IMG/VR virus record: IMGVR_UViG_2740892230_000037
Length of the DNA: 7,979 bases
Strand: one strand, 5' to 3'
From: a virus
Taxonomy: Duplodnaviria > Heunggongvirae > Uroviricota > Caudoviricetes
The notes under the pieces were generated by a model. That model made no database searches. It saw only the letters and a list, made by a program, of their open reading frames with translations, and was not told where the DNA came from. A program made the translations under genes and the position numbers. Shown one piece after another: positions 1 to 7,979 of the stretch (position 1 is the first letter of the stretch; the number at the start of each line of letters is the position of its first letter).

Positions 1-1020
1 CTACTTGCTAACCACGAGCGGCAAATCCAGTGTTGGTGTGATTTTTGTTTTACGATCGTAAATCAACACCTGATTTTCTGTTTTATGCCCGCTGAAAATT
101 TGTTTGTCGCGACTGCTGCCTTCGTAATCTGAGATCCCCTTGGCTTTTATGTCGTGAAAATTGCACCCGAACGGAACGCCAACTTTTTGCTCGGCTGCGC
201 GTTTAGCCTGATTCCACCAGTTATTCAGCGTTTTAGCTATGACTTTCCCGCCTTTGGTTGTATTGATCACATATTCGCATGTACAGGAAGATACATTTCG
301 GGCTAACTGGATCGCTGTACGTAATCGCGGTGACCATTCCTTGATTTGTTTGGTGCCGGTTTTGTTTTGCTCAATGTAGATCCCTTTATCCATAATATCC
401 TGCCATTTCAACTCAAGCACATCACCGAGTCTTGCCGCACAGAGATAGGAAATCTCCATTGCAATGCGTAACTGTGGAATTGCTTCCGCATATATCGCCG
501 CATACTGTTCATCGGTGATGTAAACAGTGCGGGCTTTAAGAGAGAATTTTCTGACTCCTTTGCATGGGTTATTCTTCACATACCCACGCTCATATCCCCA
601 CCCGTATACTCGACTCAGGCTTGCCAGTTCATGATTTGCCTGGGTCTTGCTCTCAAGCCCTCGTTTATCCATGAAAATTCTTACCTGCTCAGTTTTGACA
701 TTATCAGCAAGCACTTTTCCGAATACCATCAGCAACGCCTTCTGATGTTGTCGATAATCTTTTTGGGTTCGGGGGGCCAGTTCTGTAAATGCAGGGGAGT
801 CCATAAACATGTGCCATAATTTAGCTACGGTCATTATGTTGTGGAGTTTTGCTTTTTCCAGTTCATAATTTTGCCAGACTTTAGCTACGCTGGTTTTCCG
901 CACTCTTCCTAGCCCTATACTTCTTGTACTTCCTTCGGGTTTCCACACGTAACTGTAACCATTCGATCTAACCCGCGGTGGCAGTACATTATCTTTTTTA
1001 TTTTTTCTTGGTCTTCCCAT
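1..1020 (-). CDS. int: Tyrosine site-specific integrase, lambda Int family (complete, 339 aa)
   Basis: Uninterrupted minus-strand ORF with ATG at 1018-1020 and TAG at 1-3. Basic N-terminal segment (MGRPRKNKKDNVLPPRVRSNGYSY) and C-terminal FHDIKAKG...SGHKTENQVLIYDRK tail follow the layout of lambda Int, including a Tyr in the expected catalytic position. Its start is overlapped by the upstream small ORF, as in lambda xis-int. Confidence 0.92.
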   Translation of the reverse strand: MGRPRKNKKDNVLPPRVRSNGYSYVWKPEGSTRSIGLGRVRKTSVAKVWQNYELEKAKLHNIMTVAKLWHMFMDSPAFTELAPRTQKDYRQHQKALLMVFGKVLADNVKTEQVRIFMDKRGLESKTQANHELASLSRVYGWGYERGYVKNNPCKGVRKFSLKARTVYITDEQYAAIYAEAIPQLRIAMEISYLCAARLGDVLELKWQDIMDKGIYIEQNKTGTKQIKEWSPRLRTAIQLARNVSSCTCEYVINTTKGGKVIAKTLNNWWNQAKRAAEQKVGVPFGCNFHDIKAKGISDYEGSSRDKQIFSGHKTENQVLIYDRKTKITPTLDLPLVVSK

Positions 1021-1330
1021 TGTTCAGCGCCTCAAAATCGGGTTCAGCAGAAACCAGTTCAGATGTTTTTGGCATCGTTGTCAGACCGTGTGGAATATCC
1101 CTGCGGAGAACTATGGGTTCGTTTTTAGGGCCGATTACAAATGGGATGCCGTGCAGTCTTAACTNNNNNNNNNNTCCGTGTGGAATATCCCTGCGTAGAA
1201 CTATTGGTTCGTTTTTAGGACCGATTACAAATGGGATGCCGTGCAGTCTTAACTGGTGTTGCTGTTTTGTGTATCGCTCGTATTTCGTGATCTCTTTAAT
1301 CTCTGCTGGAGATAGAGTTAATTCGTACAT
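998..1330 (-). CDS. xis: Excisionase-like small protein; the true product is probably about 80 aa because the ORF crosses gap 1165-1174 and contains a duplicated block
   Basis: ATG at 1328-1330 (MYELTLSPAEIK...) and a lysine-rich C-terminus (NNGKTKKK) that overlaps the int start by 23 nt. Position, size and overlap match lambda-type xis. The 26-aa block LRLHGIPFVIGPKNEPIVLRRDIPHG is encoded twice, on either side of the N run. Confidence 0.55.
   Translation of the reverse strand: MYELTLSPAEIKEITKYERYTKQQHQLRLHGIPFVIGPKNEPIVLRRDIPHGXXXXLRLHGIPFVIGPKNEPIVLRRDIPHGLTTMPKTSELVSAEPDFEALNNGKTKKK
1081..1258. repeat. Two copies of an 84-bp xis segment separated by N10 (1165-1174)
   Basis: 1081-1164 and 1175-1258 align base for base with 3 substitutions, all synonymous in the minus-strand xis frame (ctc/cta, ccc/cca, ggc/ggt). 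Confidence 0.9.
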
Positions 1331-1397
1331 GTGGTCACGTGCCTTTACAGCATGACCGCCGCCACTATAGCTGGTGGGCGGCGATATGGGTTGAACA

Positions 1398-1570
1398 TTA
1401 AAAATCAGCCTGACTCGGGATCAGTTTTTGCCAGATAGCTGAAACGTATTTTGCCTGATAACGGGCGTCATCAAGTGCATTATGGCGCTCACCTTCGAAT
1501 GGGATAGCAGTTCTGGCATCGAAGTCTATGGCTTTCCCCAGCTCAACGATTGTGCGTACATCGCGATCGT
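1398..1570 (-). CDS. DEDDh 3'-5' exonuclease, C-terminal fragment with stop (allele 1)
   Basis: Minus-frame translation DRDVRTIVELGKAIDFDARTAIPFEGERHNALDDARYQAKYVSAIWQKLIPSQADF ending at the stop at 1398-1400. Contains the Exo III motif H-x-A-x-x-D-A (HNALDDA). Truncated upstream by gap 1571-1580. Confidence 0.7.
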
Positions 1571-1580
1571 NNNNNNNNNN

Positions 1581-1843
1581 GCAGTTTTTGCCAGATGGCT
1601 GAAACGTATTTCGCCTGGTAACGTGCATCGTTCAGAGCGTTATGGCGTTCACCTTCGAATGGAATAGTCGTTCTTGCGTCGAAATCCATCACCAGTCCCA
1701 GAGCAACCATCGTTCTTACATCGCGATCATTGGTGTAACGCCACGGGCAGGGGATCCCCTGCCGTTCATATGAACGGCGTAAAATCACGTTGTCGAAAGT
1801 TGCACCGTCACCCCAGACCTGAACAAAAAATTCACCGGAGTTT
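1581..1843 (-). CDS. DEDDh 3'-5' exonuclease, internal to C-terminal fragment (allele 2)
   Basis: In-frame translation NSGEFFVQVWGDGATFDNVILRRSYERQGIPCPWRYTNDRDVRTMVALGLVMDFDARTTIPFEGERHNALNDARYQAKYVSAIWQKL. Carries an Exo II-like FD motif (GATFDNVIL) and Exo III (HNALNDA). Bounded by N runs on both sides. Confidence 0.7.
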
Positions 1844-1853
1844 NNNNNNNNNN

Positions 1854-2192
1854 CTGCGCTTCACGTGATTGCTTCAGCCACCATTTAATGACGTCACGAT
1901 CAATGACTCCGCCAGCAGTATCCAGATCGATGGTCTTGCTAAATTCTGGTCCCATATCTCCGGTTTGCGGATCGAAAAATATTGCGCCTATTGAGATAAT
2001 CGGGGCATCGGGATTTTTTCCCATGGTTTCAAGGTCGATCATCAGATGAATCCCCGCTCTGCTGGTGGATGTGAGCTTATGATGACCATTCACCTTAATT
2101 AAGGGATCTGTCGCCTCGCCAGTTTTATTATCGCTGGCGTGATGCTGATTGCCGCCAGGGTTCTCCTTGTGTGGATGTTCAGCGCCTTCCAT
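1854..2192 (-). CDS. DEDDh 3'-5' exonuclease, N-terminal fragment with His-rich leader (allele A)
   Basis: ATG at 2190-2192; [21 protein letters not shown]...NGHHKLTSTSRAGIHLMIDLETMGKNPDAPIISIGAIFFDPQTGDMGPEFSKTIDLDTAGGVIDRDVIKWWLKQSREAQ. Exo I motif D-x-E (MIDLETMG). Truncated downstream by gap 1844-1853. Confidence 0.7.
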
Positions 2193-2203
2193 TNNNNNNN
2201 NNN

Positions 2204-2527
2204 TTGCGCTTCGCGTGATTGCTTAAGCCACCATTTAATGGTGTCCCGATCAATGACTCCGCCAGCAGTTTCCAGATCGATAGTCTTACTAAATTCCGGT
2301 CCCATATCTCCGGTTTGCGGATCGAAAAATATTGCGCCTATTGAGATAATCGGGGCATCGGGATTTTTTCCCATGGTTTCAAGGTCGATCATCAGATGAA
2401 TCCCCGCTCTGCTGGTGGATGTGAGATTATGATGACCGTTCGCCTTAATTAAGGGATCTGACGCCTCGCCAGTTTCACTATCGCTGGCATGATGCTGATT
2501 GCCGCCAGTGTTCTCCTTGTGCTGATG
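2204..2527 (-). CDS. DEDDh exonuclease N-terminal fragment (allele B, about 95 percent nucleotide identity to 1854-2192)
   Basis: Same frame and motifs (…[99 protein letters not shown]). Bounded by N runs. Confidence 0.65.
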
Positions 2528-2537
2528 NNNNNNNNNN

Positions 2538-2732
2538 GATCGGGGCATCAGGATTTTTTCCCATGGTTTCAAGGTCGATCATTAGATGGTTACACGTCCT
2601 GCTGGTGGATGTGATTTCTTGATGACCGTTCACCTTAATTGAGTGATCTGCCGTCTCGCCAGTTTCATTATCGCTATCGTGATGCTGATTGCCGCCAGTG
2701 TTCTCCTTGTGTGGATGTTCAGCGCCTTCCAT
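2538..2732 (-). CDS. DEDDh exonuclease N-terminal fragment (allele C)
   Basis: ATG at 2730-2732; [65 protein letters not shown]. The 33 nt preceding gap 2734-2743 are identical to the 33 nt preceding gap 2194-2203. Confidence 0.6.
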
Positions 2733-2744
2733 TNNNNNNNNNNC

Positions 2745-2885
2745 ACACGTCCTGCTGGTGGATGTGATAACGTGATGACCGTTCACCGTAATTAAGGGAT
2801 CTGCCGTCTCGCCAGTTTCACTATCGCTGGCGTGATCCTGAGCGCTACCAGCATTCTCCTTGTGTGGATGTTCAGCGCCTTCCAT
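2745..2885 (-). CDS. DEDDh exonuclease N-terminal leader fragment (allele D)
   Basis: ATG at 2883-2885; [47 protein letters not shown]. It is in the same frame as, and 57 nt downstream of, the amber stop of the zinc-ribbon ORF at 2940-2942. Confidence 0.6.
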
Positions 2886-2939
2886 TTCCTTCGGATCATC
2901 TTCCTGAACTTCAACCTGATACTCTTCATCGAATGTTTC

Positions 2940-3085
2940 CTAGTATGTTGCGTCGCCCATCACCGCGCCACAATCAGGGCAGTTGCCGCCGCCGGTCTGA
3001 CCGCAGGCGGTGCAGACTTTTTCCACTTCCTGTTGCGCCACTGGTTCAGGCTGTTTCGTTTCTGGCTCGTTTTGTAACGCATTTG
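2940..3085 (-). CDS. C-terminal end of zinc-ribbon protein (Q/E/P linker plus CxxC-x9-CxxC), ending in TAG
   Basis: In-frame translation ...[47 protein letters not shown] then the TAG stop at 2940-2942. 5' side truncated by gap 3086-3095. Confidence 0.65.
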
Positions 3086-3095
3086 NNNNNNNNNN

Positions 3096-3284
3096 CCATC
3101 GAATATTTCCTGGTATGTTGCGTCACCCATCACCGCACCACAATCAGGGCAGTTGCCGCCACCGCTCTGACCGCAGGCGGTGCAGATCTTTTCCGGTTCC
3201 TGTTGCACTACTGGTTCAGGTTGTTTCGTTTCTGGCTCGTTTTGTTGCGTATTTGGGCTGTTTTGTTCCGCTTTCTGGTCGTTC
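3096..3284 (-). CDS. Zinc-ribbon module, allele with CAG (Gln) in place of the amber stop, reading through toward the exonuclease leader
   Basis: [63 protein letters not shown], with no stop before gap 3086-3095. The CAG codon at 3110-3112 aligns to the TAG at 2940-2942. Confidence 0.6.
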
Positions 3285-3294
3285 NNNNNNNNNN

Positions 3295-3450
3295 AGTTCC
3301 GTTCCGATTCATGCTGGTTCTGGTTTACAGAATCGCGGGTCTGGATCCCCTTAACCCATTTCGGATCATTCGGGTCGCTAATCCCTGCAACAAATTCTCC
3401 GCGAGAGGCAGCAAGCAACTTATCGGCGTCAGGCTGGCTGATATTGGCTG
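3295..3450 (-). CDS. Shared module fragment ([51 protein letters not shown])
   Basis: In-frame minus-strand translation. The same module, with substitutions, sits at the C-terminal end of the 4609-6133 ORF and in 3461-3712. Confidence 0.6.
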
Positions 3451-3460
3451 NNNNNNNNNN

Positions 3461-4405
3461 TCAACAAATTCACCACGTGATACTGCAAGCAGTTCATCGG
3501 CGTCAGGCTGGCTGATATTGGCTGCCTGCATAATTTTCTTTACTTCGTCAGCGGTAACTTTTACCGGTTCTGGTTGTTCAGAATTTTGTGCGGTATTTGC
3601 ATTTTGCGGTAAGCCTGTGTATGTGCCATTTTTTCGGGCAAAATATTCTTCTTTTGTGATTTCAGTAGCCCCGGCAGCCAGCGCCTTATCCAGACCAGAA
3701 AGTTTGTTTGCGNNNNNNNNNNACGTGCGAAGTATTCCTCTTTTGTGATTTCCGTAGCTCCCAGGGCCAGTGCTTTTTCCAGACCAGAAAATTTGTTTGC
3801 GCGACCGTATTTTTCGCCATCCTTGTCGGTGAAGAGGAAGTAGAACGGCCCCTCACGCTCTACAGATGGTTCGACTTCCACTTTGCATTCGGTTTTTTCG
3901 TTGTCCGGAATTGCCGTTTCCACTGCATCAGTTTCTGGTACTGNNNNNNNNNNAGCTTCCGGCGCGGTTTCATTTTTTGGGATATCAGATACCTCAGTTT
4001 CCACTGCATCAGTTTGTGTTTCTGATGACTGGAGAACATCAACAGTGCCCAGGTCTGTTTCTTCATTCTCAAACACGCCCTTTGTCGTCAGGTATTCGCA
4101 GATATATTTGTTCAGTGCTACGGGATCTTTGTGAATGTNNNNNNNNNNTGACGGGAGAGTACCAGCTGTGCCCTGATTTGTTCCTTCGTCATCTTCAAAC
4201 ACGCCCTTGGTAGTCAGGTATTCAGTGATGTATTTGTTCAGTGCTACGGGATCTTTGTGAATGTCGATCGGACGCTCACGGACAAGGCCAAAAATAGTCT
4301 GACGGTCGTAGCGAACGGCATCGGGTTGTTTGCGCATTGATGCGGAAATGCGCTTCCAGTCTTCGCGATCTTTGTCGATAACTTCATTTTTTGCCCAGCG
4401 ATGGA
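3461..4405 (-). CDS. Four gap-separated fragments (3461-3712, 3723-3943, 3954-4138, 4149-4405) of one or more paralogues with a different N-terminal domain joined to the same shared module
   Basis: Translations: (4149-4405) ...HRWAKNEVIDKDREDWKRISASMRKQPDAVRYDRQTIFGLVRERPIDIHKDPVALNKYITEYLTTKGVFEDDEG...; (3954-4138) IHKDPVALNKYICEYLTTKGVFENEETDLG...; (3723-3943) ...VEREGPFYFLFTDKDGEKYGRANKFSGLEKALALGATEITKEEYFAR; (3461-3712) [83 protein letters not shown]. Adjacent fragments overlap as divergent alleles. Confidence 0.55.
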
Positions 4406-4415
4406 NNNNNNNNNN

Positions 4416-4598
4416 CTTTTTCCGGTTCCTGTTGCGCTACTGGCTCAGGTTGTTTCGTTTCTGGCTCGTTTTGTAACGCATTTGGGCTGTTTTGTTCCGC
4501 TTTCTGGCTGTTTTGTTCCGCTTTCTGGCCGTTCTGTTCCGTTTCTTGCTGGTTCTGATTCACTGAATCGCGGGTTTCAATCCCCTTCACCCATTTCG
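4416..4598 (-). CDS. Linker fragment of the shared module, containing a 21-bp tandem repeat
   Basis: [60 protein letters not shown], bounded by gaps on both sides. Confidence 0.55.
4464..4548. repeat. 21-bp tandem repeat (unit gctgttttgttccgctttctg, 2 perfect plus 2 degenerate copies) encoding QKAEQNS heptads
   Basis: Perfect units at 4486-4506 and 4507-4527, degenerate units on either side. Further copies of the unit lie at 3256-3276 and near 3061-3085, next to gaps. Confidence 0.85.
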
Positions 4599-4608
4599 NN
4601 NNNNNNNN

Positions 4609-6133
4609 CGTTCCGTTCCGATTCATGCTGGTTCTGGTTCACAGAATCGCGAGTCTGGATCCCCTTGACCCATTTCGGATCATTAGGGTCGCTAATCCCC
4701 TCAACAAATTCACCACGCGATACAGCAAGTAACTTATCGGCGTCAGGCTGGCTGATATTGGCTGCCTGCATAATTTTGTTTACTTCGTCAGCGGTGACTT
4801 TTACTTGGTTAGCGGAACTCACTTGCGACTGAGCATCCAGCGACTGCGCGTTCTGGCCATGTTCAGTTGTATCCGGTTCCATTGTTTCAGTTGTTGCCTG
4901 TTCACCTGCCATTGCGTCAGATGGTTGTGGTTTTTCTTCTTCTGTTTCACGCTCAGTAACCACCTCGCGGTTAATTTCTTCCAGGATATCTTTTTCCGGC
5001 GTATGCCGGGCAGCTGTGAGAGTTTCCTTGCTGGGGTTCTCGTGATCAGTTTCCGTCAAATAGGCGTTGATATACCCCTGAAGGCGTCCCGGGTAGTGAT
5101 AAAATTCAGGGTGTGCGCTTCGGATAAGTGCAAAAATAGCGGCGCGGGAATAGTCCAGAATACCCGGGGTTGCACGAAGTGCTGCGGACCATTCTTTGAA
5201 CGGACTTTCTTTGTTCAGGACTACTTCTTTTGCGCGACGATAAACGCTGCCCGGAATTTCATAAATATTAAAATCCATCGGAAGTGTGGCTGCTGCAATC
5301 TCCACATCCAGTGTGTCGAGGGTGTGTACTAAATTCGGATTGCGATCGGTTTTGTTCCCACCGCCAGCATTAGCACCGGAAGCCGTGCGGGTGATGCGTG
5401 AAACACGATTTCCTTTCATCCACTCTTTTGTCAGCAGACCCCGATCAGTGTAGTCAGTGTCCAGGTATGCTTCGAAAAAAGCAGTTATTAGTCCCAGGTC
5501 TGAATTACCAGGATTAGGGAAAACTTTGTCAGTGTCACGAACCAGTTTGTGGAGGTCGCGAATCTCCAGCGAGTCGAGCAGACTGGTTTTATGCGAAATA
5601 GCCAGGGCAGTAACAGCCGGTAGTTCTTCAGCCCGTGCAATGTGTAATGCCTGGAGTTCGTCGCGTGAAACGTGCGTTACTGATTTTTCGCTGCCGTGTT
5701 GAGCAAGCCAACGAATGGGCAGTTCCTGACCGGAGACAGGCAGAAGCATGCTCTCCTCAATCTCAGTCATGTCTTCGCCGTTGATGTTGGTATTGTCAGT
5801 GCTGGCTGGTTTGTCCTGAACAGAGGGGGAAGGGCCGATAAATGTCATTGTGATGCCATCTTTCCCGCCTTTTTCATAGCGGTTGCAGAATTCAGTATCA
5901 AACACGCCTTCTGGCGGAAGGTCGTCAACAACGGGCAAATTGACGCGGACGGGTTTTTTAAAGTCGTCTTCATCATAATCGTTGTCATCCATTGCGGTAA
6001 TGCAGCGGGAGATTGCAACAGATAATTTTTTTGCTGTAGTCCAGTAAAAACCACCTTTAATTCCTAGGCGTTTTCTTACTTTGTCATTTTTTGCTTCGCA
6101 ATATAGTGCAAATTCTTCTTTATCAGTGCTCAT
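4609..6133 (-). CDS. Large early-left protein, N-terminal 508 aa (5' complete, 3' cut by gap 4599-4608); tentatively RecE-N-terminal-like, possibly an intact counterpart of Qin-prophage ydfE
   Basis: ATG at 6131-6133 with a GAGG about 10 nt upstream; long protein-like ORF with an acidic TE-rich region. It ends in ...[56 protein letters not shown], the module that elsewhere continues into linker and zinc ribbon. The resemblance of its central region to the RecE N-terminal half is from memory only. Confidence 0.8.
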
Positions 6134-6226
6134 TATTGGTAAACCTCATCACAGATTTAAGGGTGAACAAATCTCTGCCATTGCTGACATATAAGAATGA
6201 AACTGGATATTTATTACGGTGCTGTT

Positions 6227-6418
6227 TTAAAATCCTGCCGGGATTTCGTTATTATCCTGGTGAATAACTTTATCGACCGGGTAACAGTTACCGGGAATTT
6301 TCTGTTCGGTTGCTGCAGTCACACACTCCTGCATTGTCCTGTGAACACTGACTGCAATATCAACTGGCTCTCCGGAAACAAGAAAAACTGTCAGAACAAG
6401 TGCAAATGCTGTATTCAT
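6227..6418 (-). CDS. ydfD: YdfD-like small lysis protein with a hydrophobic N-terminus (63 aa)
   Basis: ATG at 6416-6418 overlaps the dicB stop as ATGA; MNTAFALVLTVFLVSGEPVDIAVSVHRTMQECVTAATEQKIPGNCYPVDKVIHQDNNEIPAGF. It sits immediately downstream of dicB, as in the Qin prophage of E. coli K-12. Confidence 0.7.
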   Translation of the reverse strand: MNTAFALVLTVFLVSGEPVDIAVSVHRTMQECVTAATEQKIPGNCYPVDKVIHQDNNEIPAGF

Positions 6419-6569
6419 TGCCAGCATCCTTTTTGTATCGGACGTAAACGGGCCAGCATTGAAAGAATGCATATTTTATTTAATAGCTCCCGTTCGTGTT
6501 TTCTCTTGTTAATGGCATCTTCAGTAAATACAGGGTTACTGATAGTGACACCAATTTCAAAACAACCTT
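6415..6569 (-). CDS. dicB: dicB allele 1, C-terminal fragment (5' cut by gap 6570-6579)
   Basis: ...GCFEIGVTISNPVFTEDAINKRKHERELLNKICILSMLARLRPIQKGCWQ with stop at 6415-6417. About 90 percent nucleotide identity to 6606-6760. Confidence 0.7.
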
Positions 6570-6605
6570 NNNNNNNNNNCGTCAGAATAAGTGCAAATAC
6601 TGGAT

Positions 6606-6794
6606 TCATTGTGCACATCCTTTTGGCATCAGACGTAAACGGGCCAGCATTGAAACAATGCATACTTTATTTAATAACTCCCGTTCGTGTTTTCTTTTGT
6701 TAATGGCATCTTCAGTAAATACAGGATTACTGATAGTGACACCAATTTCAAAACAACCTTCAGACGTATTAACGTTTGGTAATAACGTTTCCAT
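6606..6794 (-). CDS. dicB: DicB cell-division inhibitor (complete, 62 aa)
   Basis: ATG at 6792-6794 with GAGGA 7 nt upstream; METLLPNVNTSEGCFEIGVTISNPVFTEDAINKRKHERELLNKVCIVSMLARLRLMPKGCAQ. The stop overlaps the ATG of a second ydfD allele (6580-6609, cut by the gap). DicF lies 180 nt upstream on the same strand. Confidence 0.8.
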   Translation of the reverse strand: METLLPNVNTSEGCFEIGVTISNPVFTEDAINKRKHERELLNKVCIVSMLARLRLMPKGCAQ

Positions 6795-6812
6795 TATCGC
6801 GTCCTCAACAAT

Positions 6813-6964
6813 GAATTTTGTGATGCGGTGCCTGGTGCCTCCAGGTGACGTTAACCAGTTAACAATTAACGCCGGATACAGAGCATTCCCGTTACGCCCG
6901 TAAAAGACCGCTTGTTTTAACTGTTCCGCGTGCGCTTAGCCGCATTCACCGCATCACAAAATTC
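6813..6964 (-). promoter_or_regulatory. Perfect 18-bp inverted repeat (6813-6830 and 6947-6964) bracketing the dicF-dicB spacer; candidate long-range RNA duplex and RNase III site
   Basis: Plus 6813-6830 gaattttgtgatgcggtg is the exact reverse complement of plus 6947-6964 caccgcatcacaaaattc. One arm is just 3' of the DicF terminator, the other about 20 nt upstream of the dicB start. Confidence 0.5.
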
Positions 6965-6969
6965 ACTTT

Positions 6970-7012
6970 AAAAAGGGCGGCAGAGCAGTCACGGAGTAAA
7001 ACTGATACCGCC
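6970..7012 (-). terminator. Intrinsic terminator forming the DicF 3' end
   Basis: GC-rich stem (GGCGGUA...UGCCGCC) followed by five U on the minus-strand transcript (A run at plus 6970-6974). Confidence 0.65.
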
Positions 7013-7027
7013 AAACGTCACCAGAAA
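6975..7027 (-). ncRNA. dicF: DicF small RNA (ftsZ-targeting sRNA of the dicB operon)
   Basis: Reverse complement of 6975-7027 reads TTTCTGGTGACGTTTGGCGGTATCAGTTTTACTCCGTGACTGCTCTGCCGCCC followed by TTTTT, which matches the 53-nt DicF sequence as I recall it, and it lies directly upstream of dicB. Confidence 0.8.
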
Positions 7028-7360
7028 ATTGATAACAGAGGGCGTTGCAGCGGGGTTGTCACTTAAGCGTATGGTCAACCTGACAACCCGGTGTCCTCAA
7101 CGGGGAAGGAATAACCCCGCCATACTTACCGCCGCGCCATTTCGCGGATTGCCACAACCGGAAGCGCACGGTCGACGAAAATTTAACGACAGGCTATCTA
7201 TGAACCAGCTACCTCGCCGTGCGCTTTCGCTTTATGCCCTAACTTTTCAGGGACATATCCTTTCAGTAAACTGTCAGTGCCGGATGTTCACCCGTGTCCG
7301 GCGCACGCACTCCACTTCACCCGTGGAGAACTCCTTAATTACCAACCCTCAGGAGGGTGA

Positions 7361-7594
7361 ATGTTAAAATCAACTCTTATTGCTAAATGCCTTTATCAAA
7401 ATCGCATGGTAAGCAGCATTTCAATAGGCGAGTCTGCAGTTAAAAGTATTTTCGAAGAGTACTTTCCCGGGCATGATTTTAATAAATGGAATACCAAATT
7501 ACCGCCAGCAGTTTCAACGCGTATTCTGAAAGCAACCGAAAGAGCAAGTACAATTCGCGTTAACTATTTCATTAAAGATTTGTGGGATCTTTGA
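7361..7594 (+). CDS. Hypothetical 77-aa protein (AT-rich island, unknown family)
   Basis: ATG at 7361 preceded by AGGAGG at 7351-7356; protein-like composition (MLKSTLIAKCLYQNRMVSSISIGESAVKSIFEEYFPGHDFNKWNTKLPPAVSTRILKATERASTIRVNYFIKDLWDL). Base composition turns visibly AT-rich at about 7357. The 3' end overlaps the convergent 135-aa gene by 23 nt. Confidence 0.55.
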   Translation: MLKSTLIAKCLYQNRMVSSISIGESAVKSIFEEYFPGHDFNKWNTKLPPAVSTRILKATERASTIRVNYFIKDLWDL

Positions 7595-7979
7595 TATCCA
7601 CAGAGCCTAAAGTATGTGCATATGGATGTGCTATTATGCGCCCTCGCAGATTTGCATCATTTTCTAAATTCACTGAACGAAACAGGGCATCAACAAGGCT
7701 CTGTACAATGCAAAGGCAATCGAAGACTGTCGCCGTTTCTGTTTTGATTGATGAAAGAACATGGCCATTCACGCAAACAGAAATTACCCGTTTATTAACA
7801 TCGCTTTCCTGCTTTTGATTATCAGAACCATATAGCCCAGAAAAAGCATTGCGCACATTACGAACCATATTATCGATGGTTTCTTTTTCTGCGGTACTAA
7901 GGTCAAGAGTAGCCAGTTGTGAACGAACTATATTCGATGCCATTTCCTGTAATGGCGTTGGTAAATCTTTAAATTCCAT
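7572..7979 (-). CDS. Hypothetical 135-aa protein (AT-rich island, unknown family); start codon is the last three bases of the window
   Basis: ATG at 7977-7979, TAA at 7572-7574; balanced, soluble-looking composition (MEFKDLPTPLQEMASNIVRSQLATLDLSTAEKETIDNMVRNVRNAFSGLYGSDNQ...). The plus-strand ORF antisense to it (7582-7818) is R/S/C-rich and junk-like. Upstream signals are outside the window. Confidence 0.6.
   Translation of the reverse strand: MEFKDLPTPLQEMASNIVRSQLATLDLSTAEKETIDNMVRNVRNAFSGLYGSDNQKQESDVNKRVISVCVNGHVLSSIKTETATVFDCLCIVQSLVDALFRSVNLENDANLRGRIIAHPYAHTLGSVDIKDPTNL

Follow-up and report, generated by a model that had tools for sequence, protein, structure and literature searches.

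What is the segment at positions 6227-7027 of the 7,979-nt stretch of viral DNA analysed here (the window), and does it truly occur as two alleles within one continuous prophage arm? The reading in which we have high confidence is that it represents an ordinary dicBF segment from the early leftward operon of a Qin-like E. coli prophage, and that the "two alleles" are contig ends derived from several prophages of the source. Eight relatives were used for comparison, namely seven complete-genome prophage loci (L001 from PEC148, L002 from 2014C-3061, L003 from K-12, L004 and L006 from O103:H2 12009, L007 and L008 from 2013C-3264) and phage Tritos (L005).

On the minus strand, positions 6975-7026 match the DicF covariance model (Rfam RF00039) with a score of 76.7 bits (gathering threshold 48, E = 4.5e-16), covering the model in full from position 1 to 52. 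The 53-nt dicF gene (6975-7027, minus strand) is identical to K-12 dicF at 53/53 positions, both target-pairing ends included, and the DicF identification proposed in the preliminary description therefore stands. Its 3' end folds into a Rho-independent terminator hairpin of -15.9 kcal/mol followed by UUUUU, which a simple terminator scan missed on account of a bulged stem and a 9-nt loop. The window holds one copy of dicF, located within a long untranslated region upstream of dicB, the start of which lies 180 nt downstream of dicF. K-12 DicF represses ftsZ, xylR and pykA (PMC5069750) and, given the identity of the two RNAs, an Hfq-dependent repression of ftsZ, xylR and pykA would be expected for the window DicF as well.

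Upstream of dicF, the untranslated leader (7028-7347, minus strand) aligns to the K-12 ydfC-dicF spacer with ~94% identity, and the whole of positions 6581-7347 shows 93.9% identity to K-12 (L003 3063-3823). Two imperfect hairpins can be seen in the leader, at 7050-7120 (15 nt, 80% complementarity) and 7156-7232 (16 nt, 88%), and a 112-aa ORF with a TTG start running across it on the plus strand (7029-7367) is probably spurious. Between ydfC and the leader, the window displays a 77-aa ORF with a strong AGGAGG ribosome-binding site on the strand opposite to the operon (7361-7594, plus strand, phrog_10348) and a 135-aa ORF on the operon strand (7572-7979, minus strand, phrog_1363), both of which K-12 Qin lacks. 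Their ends overlap by 23 nt; the two PHROGs families are of unknown function, and searches of both ORFs against Pfam and NCBIfam gave no match. L002 has annotations for both of these ORFs (234 and 408 nt, L002 7775-8393), and L001 for a shorter pair at the corresponding place (222 and 375 nt).

Downstream of dicF, the identification of dicB and ydfD was borne out as well. Indeed, the complete dicB (6606-6794, minus strand), which has a K-12-like C-terminus and belongs to the junction allele named B here, encodes a 62-aa product matching, over its full length, Pfam PF05358 with 135.9 bits (cut-off 27) and NCBIfam NF049927 with 135.2 bits (cut-off 100), and identical to K-12 DicB at 59/62 residues. 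The complete ydfD (6227-6418, minus strand) encodes a 63-aa DUF1482 protein matching PF07358 with 88 bits (cut-off 25) and identical at 58/63 residues to K-12 YdfD, which is annotated as a lysis protein. As in K-12, the ydfD start overlaps the dicB stop by 4 nt (ATGA, 6415-6418).

A second dicB is represented by its 3' 155 nt only (allele A, 6415-6569, minus strand, C-terminus ...RLRPIQKGCWQ), being truncated by a contig end, and translation also reveals the first 10 codons of an allele B ydfD (MNPVFALILT, 6580-6609, minus strand), truncated by a contig start. The junction copies at 6415-6569 and 6606-6760 are identical at 143/155 positions (92.3%), and their full overlap, 6390-6569 against 6581-6760, at 165/180 (91.7%). 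Hence the two alleles of roughly 90% identity described previously are real; all the features named in that description sit at the coordinates given there, and chance accounts for none of them. What occurs in two copies is limited to the 3' 155 nt of dicB plus the initial 25-30 nt of ydfD, and each of the two genes is complete once in the window. The two copies flank a run of N at 6570-6579, which has no strand and is a contig join rather than real sequence. This join is one of 15, each a run of exactly 10 N, which together with 16 contigs make up the whole window. Numbering the contigs from 0 to 15 along the window, allele A closes contig 14 (4609-6569) and allele B opens contig 15 (6580-7979). 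In 12 cases out of 15, the contig on the left of a join ends in a stretch of 28-323 nt with homology (80-96% identity) to the beginning of the contig on its right, as would be expected if a scaffolder had set short contigs of several related repeats next to one another. The apparent two alleles are thus the diverged ends of two separate contigs set next to each other with a 10-N spacer.

The region towards the integrase gene is built in the same way. Positions 1398-6133 are overlapping allelic pieces, up to four alleles deep, of one exonuclease gene of ~815 aa, as mapped by tblastn, so that the "exonuclease genes" previously mentioned in the plural turn out to be an artefact. The N-terminal 508 codons, homologous to the K-12 ydfE pseudogene, are present once, as a single allele in contig 14 (4609-6133, minus strand). 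Their product shares 99.6% identity with the L001 exonuclease over residues 1-508 and carries the Pfam Exonuc_VIII N-terminal domain (PF06630, 124.9 bits), a RecE-like region of the contig-14 type. The middle and C-terminal parts (1398-4598, minus strand), located by tblastn and PF16473, are spread over 13 short contigs, 1 to 13, with overlapping alleles. Contigs 8-12 correspond to a second, divergent type of middle region, while contigs 3-6 carry the first part of the DEDDh domain (about residues 587-650) in four alleles, with a pairwise identity of 82-92% over a common 127-nt core. Residues ~697-719, about 20 codons, are absent from the window. Contig 6 (2744-3085) displays an in-frame TAG at 2940-2942 (minus strand) where the other alleles have CAG (Gln), which reflects either a pseudogene among the source exonuclease copies or a sequencing error in the contig. 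A 21-nt tandem repeat, GTTTTGTTCCGCTTTCTGGCT-like and encoding repeats of the QKAEQNS type, is also found in the exonuclease gene, at 4490-4560 (contig 13) and 3255-3284, with a copy number that varies between alleles. The contig-13 allele has an exact match only in a metagenome contig (ERZ507791 NODE-941, L010), where the exonuclease ORF is intact and of 819 aa.

The C-terminal domain of the exonuclease is a DEDDh 3'-5' exonuclease domain (PF16473), and the protein scores 260 bits with the RecE equivalog model NF007259, well under the cut-off of 1269. Furthermore, no gene other than the exonuclease was found between xis and ydfD in L001, L002 and L004-L008, and none of the complete relatives has a RecT, Bet or Gam partner. 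A recombination module of the Red or RecET type is ruled out by the DEDDh domain, the NF007259 score and the lack of an annealing-protein gene. At the far end of the window lie a gene for a 339-aa tyrosine integrase (1-1020, minus strand, PF00589) and an excisionase-like DUF4224 gene (998-1330, minus strand, PF13986). The first 1164 nt of the window recur at 100% identity in several STEC genomes, O103:H2 12009 among them. The DUF4224 gene consists of two allelic fragments lying across the N run at 1165-1174, with a 79-nt overlap at 96% identity, and is annotated in L004 as an 80-aa gene.

Given the 15 N-joins and the end-to-start overlaps, the window is not one continuous piece of a genome. 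The int stop and the dicB start are about 4.2 kb apart in L004 versus 6.8 kb in the window, because 1398-6133 holds overlapping allelic pieces of a single exonuclease gene, and the linkage of int (1-1020) to dicF (6975-7027) rests only on N-joins. Moreover, the contigs come from different lineages. The best matches are L004 for contigs 0 and 2 (99.6-100%), L008 for contig 3 (99.4%), L006 and L007 for contigs 4, 7 and 11 (99.7-100%) and L001 for contig 14 (99.7%), so that the 15 contigs of positions 1-6569 have best matches spread over at least four or five prophage lineages. Pieces of the window are 97-100% identical to STEC/EHEC lambdoid prophages and induced phages. An intact recombination arm, as had been claimed, would be continuous, with complete ORFs and from one element; with its joins, its missing exonuclease residues, its allele interrupted by a stop codon and its mixed lineages, the window is not such an arm.

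One alternative is a genuine tandem repeat of part of the dicB-ydfD junction inside a single prophage, in favour of which the two copies lie 191 nt apart on the same strand. However, a 10-N placeholder separates them and the same pattern recurs at 12 of the 15 N runs, no such duplication is present in any of the eight relatives, and a divergence of 8% with intact frames fits alleles rather than a recent duplication. On the strength of the 10-N join and of the overlap pattern across the window this reading was rejected, and we hold it to be extremely improbable. One could also suppose that allele B, or contig 15 altogether, is no real allele but a chimera of the assembly or a consensus full of errors. 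Indeed, no match to contig 15 over its full length exceeds 97.2%, and its junction is of the L008 type but its spacer of the L007 type. Yet both halves are real sequences: many complete genomes contain positions 6581-6720 unchanged, 663 records reaching 99% identity or more, the entire junction of allele B (6581-6760) recurs at 100% in L008, and the spacer is 99.2% identical to L006 and L007. Mosaicism is moreover the norm among such prophages, and the combination seen in contig 15 may be either a natural mosaic or an assembly switch within a stretch identical in all copies. An error in allele B was rejected in view of these identical genomes, and the chimera as a whole appears very unlikely.

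If the two alleles are real, they could still come from different strains, as in a mixed sample, a metagenome or a pooled or pan-genome construct, instead of from two prophages of one genome. In favour of this possibility, the rare contig-13 allele is closest to the human-associated metagenome contig L010, and four to five lineages are a lot for one window of 8 kb. On the other hand, single complete E. coli genomes hold the module at many places: of the 5426 complete E. coli genomes searched, 4739 contain matches to contig 15 (with a median of 2 places and a maximum of 10) and 4553 are found by a dicB-plus-spacer query (median 2, maximum 9), the module arrangement being thus present in 84-87% of them. 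Allele A (6390-6569) matches L002, L006 and L007 at 100% identity, and both alleles are present at 100% in a single genome, CP027544.1 of 2013C-3264, where the two prophages that carry them lie 4.5 Mb from each other. Strains of EHEC having dicF in four copies are also on record (PMC7873438). Taken together, these genomes indicate that one STEC-like isolate suffices to explain the window, and an origin from several strains seems rather improbable. Returning to the reading of several prophages in one source, the shared stretches of these related prophages would have broken the short-read assembly. The earlier conclusion that at least two prophages of the source carry the module is a reasonable one in the light of CP027544.1, provided that the source is a single isolate, but the number was set too low, given that the four overlapping exonuclease alleles argue for at least four copies of the module.

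The arrangement of the window was next set against known systems. With the dicBF operon of the K-12 Qin (Kim) prophage (ydfABC-dicF-dicB-ydfD-ydfE) it shares the order and spacing of dicF, the spacer, dicB and ydfD, the leader and spacer being ~94% identical. In K-12 Qin an IS2 interrupts the ydfE exonuclease and intQ has become a pseudogene, whereas no IS is found in the window and the first 508 codons of the exonuclease are open. The arm order of the window is identical to that of STEC/EHEC prophages with multiple dicBF copies (CP-933M/O/P, Sakai Sp, O103:H2 12009, O26 and O111), without any difference of substance except that the window is a fragmented mix of several such arms. In L001, L002 and L004-L008, one strand reads in turn int, a small gene resembling xis, a single exonuclease gene (2.44-2.47 kb), ydfD, dicB, DicF, ydfC-type genes and cI/cro. 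The same order, int-xis-exonuclease (~815 aa)-ydfD-dicB-DicF-(ydfC...)-cI/cro, is displayed by the induced phages Tritos, vB_EcoS-640R1 and mEp460. Of the records in the phage collection searched, 59 have the module, including induced phages and Tritos, where DicF is annotated; hence intact relatives of Qin carrying the module are already on record. Multiple dicBF copies in different lambdoid prophages of O157:H7 were reported in 2016, in a study that found neither DicB nor DicF in the phage genome databases then available (PMC5069750), and the rise in EHEC from one dicF copy to four has been covered in a review (PMC7873438). Earlier work thus already documents the module, the place it occupies, intact phages that carry it and pathogenic E. 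coli with several copies of it.

The placement of the module at the position of lambda kil, also put forward in the preliminary description, agrees with the gene orders. The lambda order is cI-N-...-cIII-kil-gam-bet-exo-...-xis-int, with kil immediately promoter-proximal to gam-bet-exo, and that of the complete relatives is cI-like-ydfA/B/C-dicF-dicB-ydfD-exonuclease-xis-int. Like lambda kil and Rac kilR, the module thus occupies the early leftward operon on the promoter-proximal side of the exonuclease or recombination genes, xis and int. Kil and DicB both block FtsZ-ring function. The likeness is positional and functional only: no BLASTP alignment between DicB and lambda Kil was obtained at E <= 100, so that no sequence similarity was found, and DicB acts via MinC and not on FtsZ directly. 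In contrast to kil, the dicBF module adds an sRNA and a lysis protein, and its neighbouring nuclease, one protein with a DEDDh domain, is not accompanied by Bet or Gam.

Between dicF and dicB, the inverted repeat and the consensus fold of the eight loci define a closed branched hairpin (6795-6974, minus strand). The entire dicF-dicB spacer is enclosed by the outer helix, a perfect one of 19 bp with arms at 6947-6965 and 6812-6830. This helix is kept in 8/8 loci compared, K-12 included, with four one-sided changes compatible with wobble pairing and one broken pair. The end of the published RNase III-dependent DicF form of 72 nt (53 + 19) would fall near 6956, halfway along the 5' arm, which makes the helix a probable RNase III substrate.

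The spacer also resembles the STnc100 family (RF02076). Indeed, it aligns to the full 206-position Rfam model with 39.1 bits, below the gathering score of 47, and similar sub-threshold matches are given by K-12 (34.4 bits, L003 3433-3642) and O103 (37.7 bits, L004 12194-12403). The canonical STnc100 of phage 933W, located 75 nt downstream of stxB2 (L011 22777-22982), scores 207.7 bits. The spacer shares with STnc100 the closing helix, a GGUGAAU block, a UCACC-hairpin-GCACC block and one compensatory change from G-C to U-A. It differs by its location in the early left instead of the late operon, by the lack of the STnc100 terminator and by a score under the gathering cut-off, on account of which it was not accepted as a family member. 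A distant common origin of the two is possible. That the spacer is a diverged RNA of the STnc100/PasD family, and that the dicBF operon, in K-12 too, releases a second stable functional RNA, is a bolder proposal that we consider unlikely. A 2026 preprint relates STnc100 to the PasD sRNA and mentions neither dicF nor dicB. Kinship of the spacer and STnc100 to the HK022 put antiterminator RNA was also considered and rejected, as the HK022 immunity region gave no STnc100 match in the Rfam search at E <= 10. Relatives of the spacer occur elsewhere. The Shigella Stx phages 75/02 and POCJ13 have, in the early left region (~6407-6659), a spacer-plus-DicF relative of ~79% identity to window 6810-7074, with no dicB annotated below the match. 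Aeromonas phage AP1 (MT713136.1, a 254-kb jumbo phage) contains 247 nt (249906-250152) that are 92% identical to the E. coli DicF-plus-spacer; this unannotated stretch lies near the end of the record and is probably a contamination or misassembly of that record.

The near-identity with K-12 suggests how such a segment may work. The operon would be transcribed from a repressor-controlled promoter located beyond position 7979, and DicA, which represses the dicBF promoter in K-12, would presumably do so for the copy in the window. As in K-12, RNase E would cut the 5' end of DicF out of the leader (PMC5069750), and the DicF hairpin with its U run would terminate most transcripts to give the 53-nt sRNA, which may then pair with ftsZ and other mRNAs. 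Transcripts that read through would fold into the 19-bp spacer helix, where a cut by RNase III would yield the 72-nt DicF form and separate the dicB-ydfD-exonuclease-xis-int message from it. Processing by RNase III and also by RNase E, as well as control by DicA and Rem, has been described (PMC10448788). Of the proteins encoded, DicB would block division through MinC and YdfD would be a lysis protein. Published work describes a MinC-dependent division block by DicB (PMC6832061, PMC4967827), inhibition of ManYZ by DicB (PMC6832061) and YdfD as a lysis protein (PMC8835842).

As a discovery the module matters little, being already documented. The make-up of the window carries a more general lesson, since allelic contigs joined by N in draft genomes mimic duplications or several adjacent genes, and N runs should be checked before repeats are interpreted. 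Furthermore, the copy number of dicF is relevant to the regulation of EHEC virulence and, in this context, a source with at least four such arms is probably a multi-prophage STEC-like strain.
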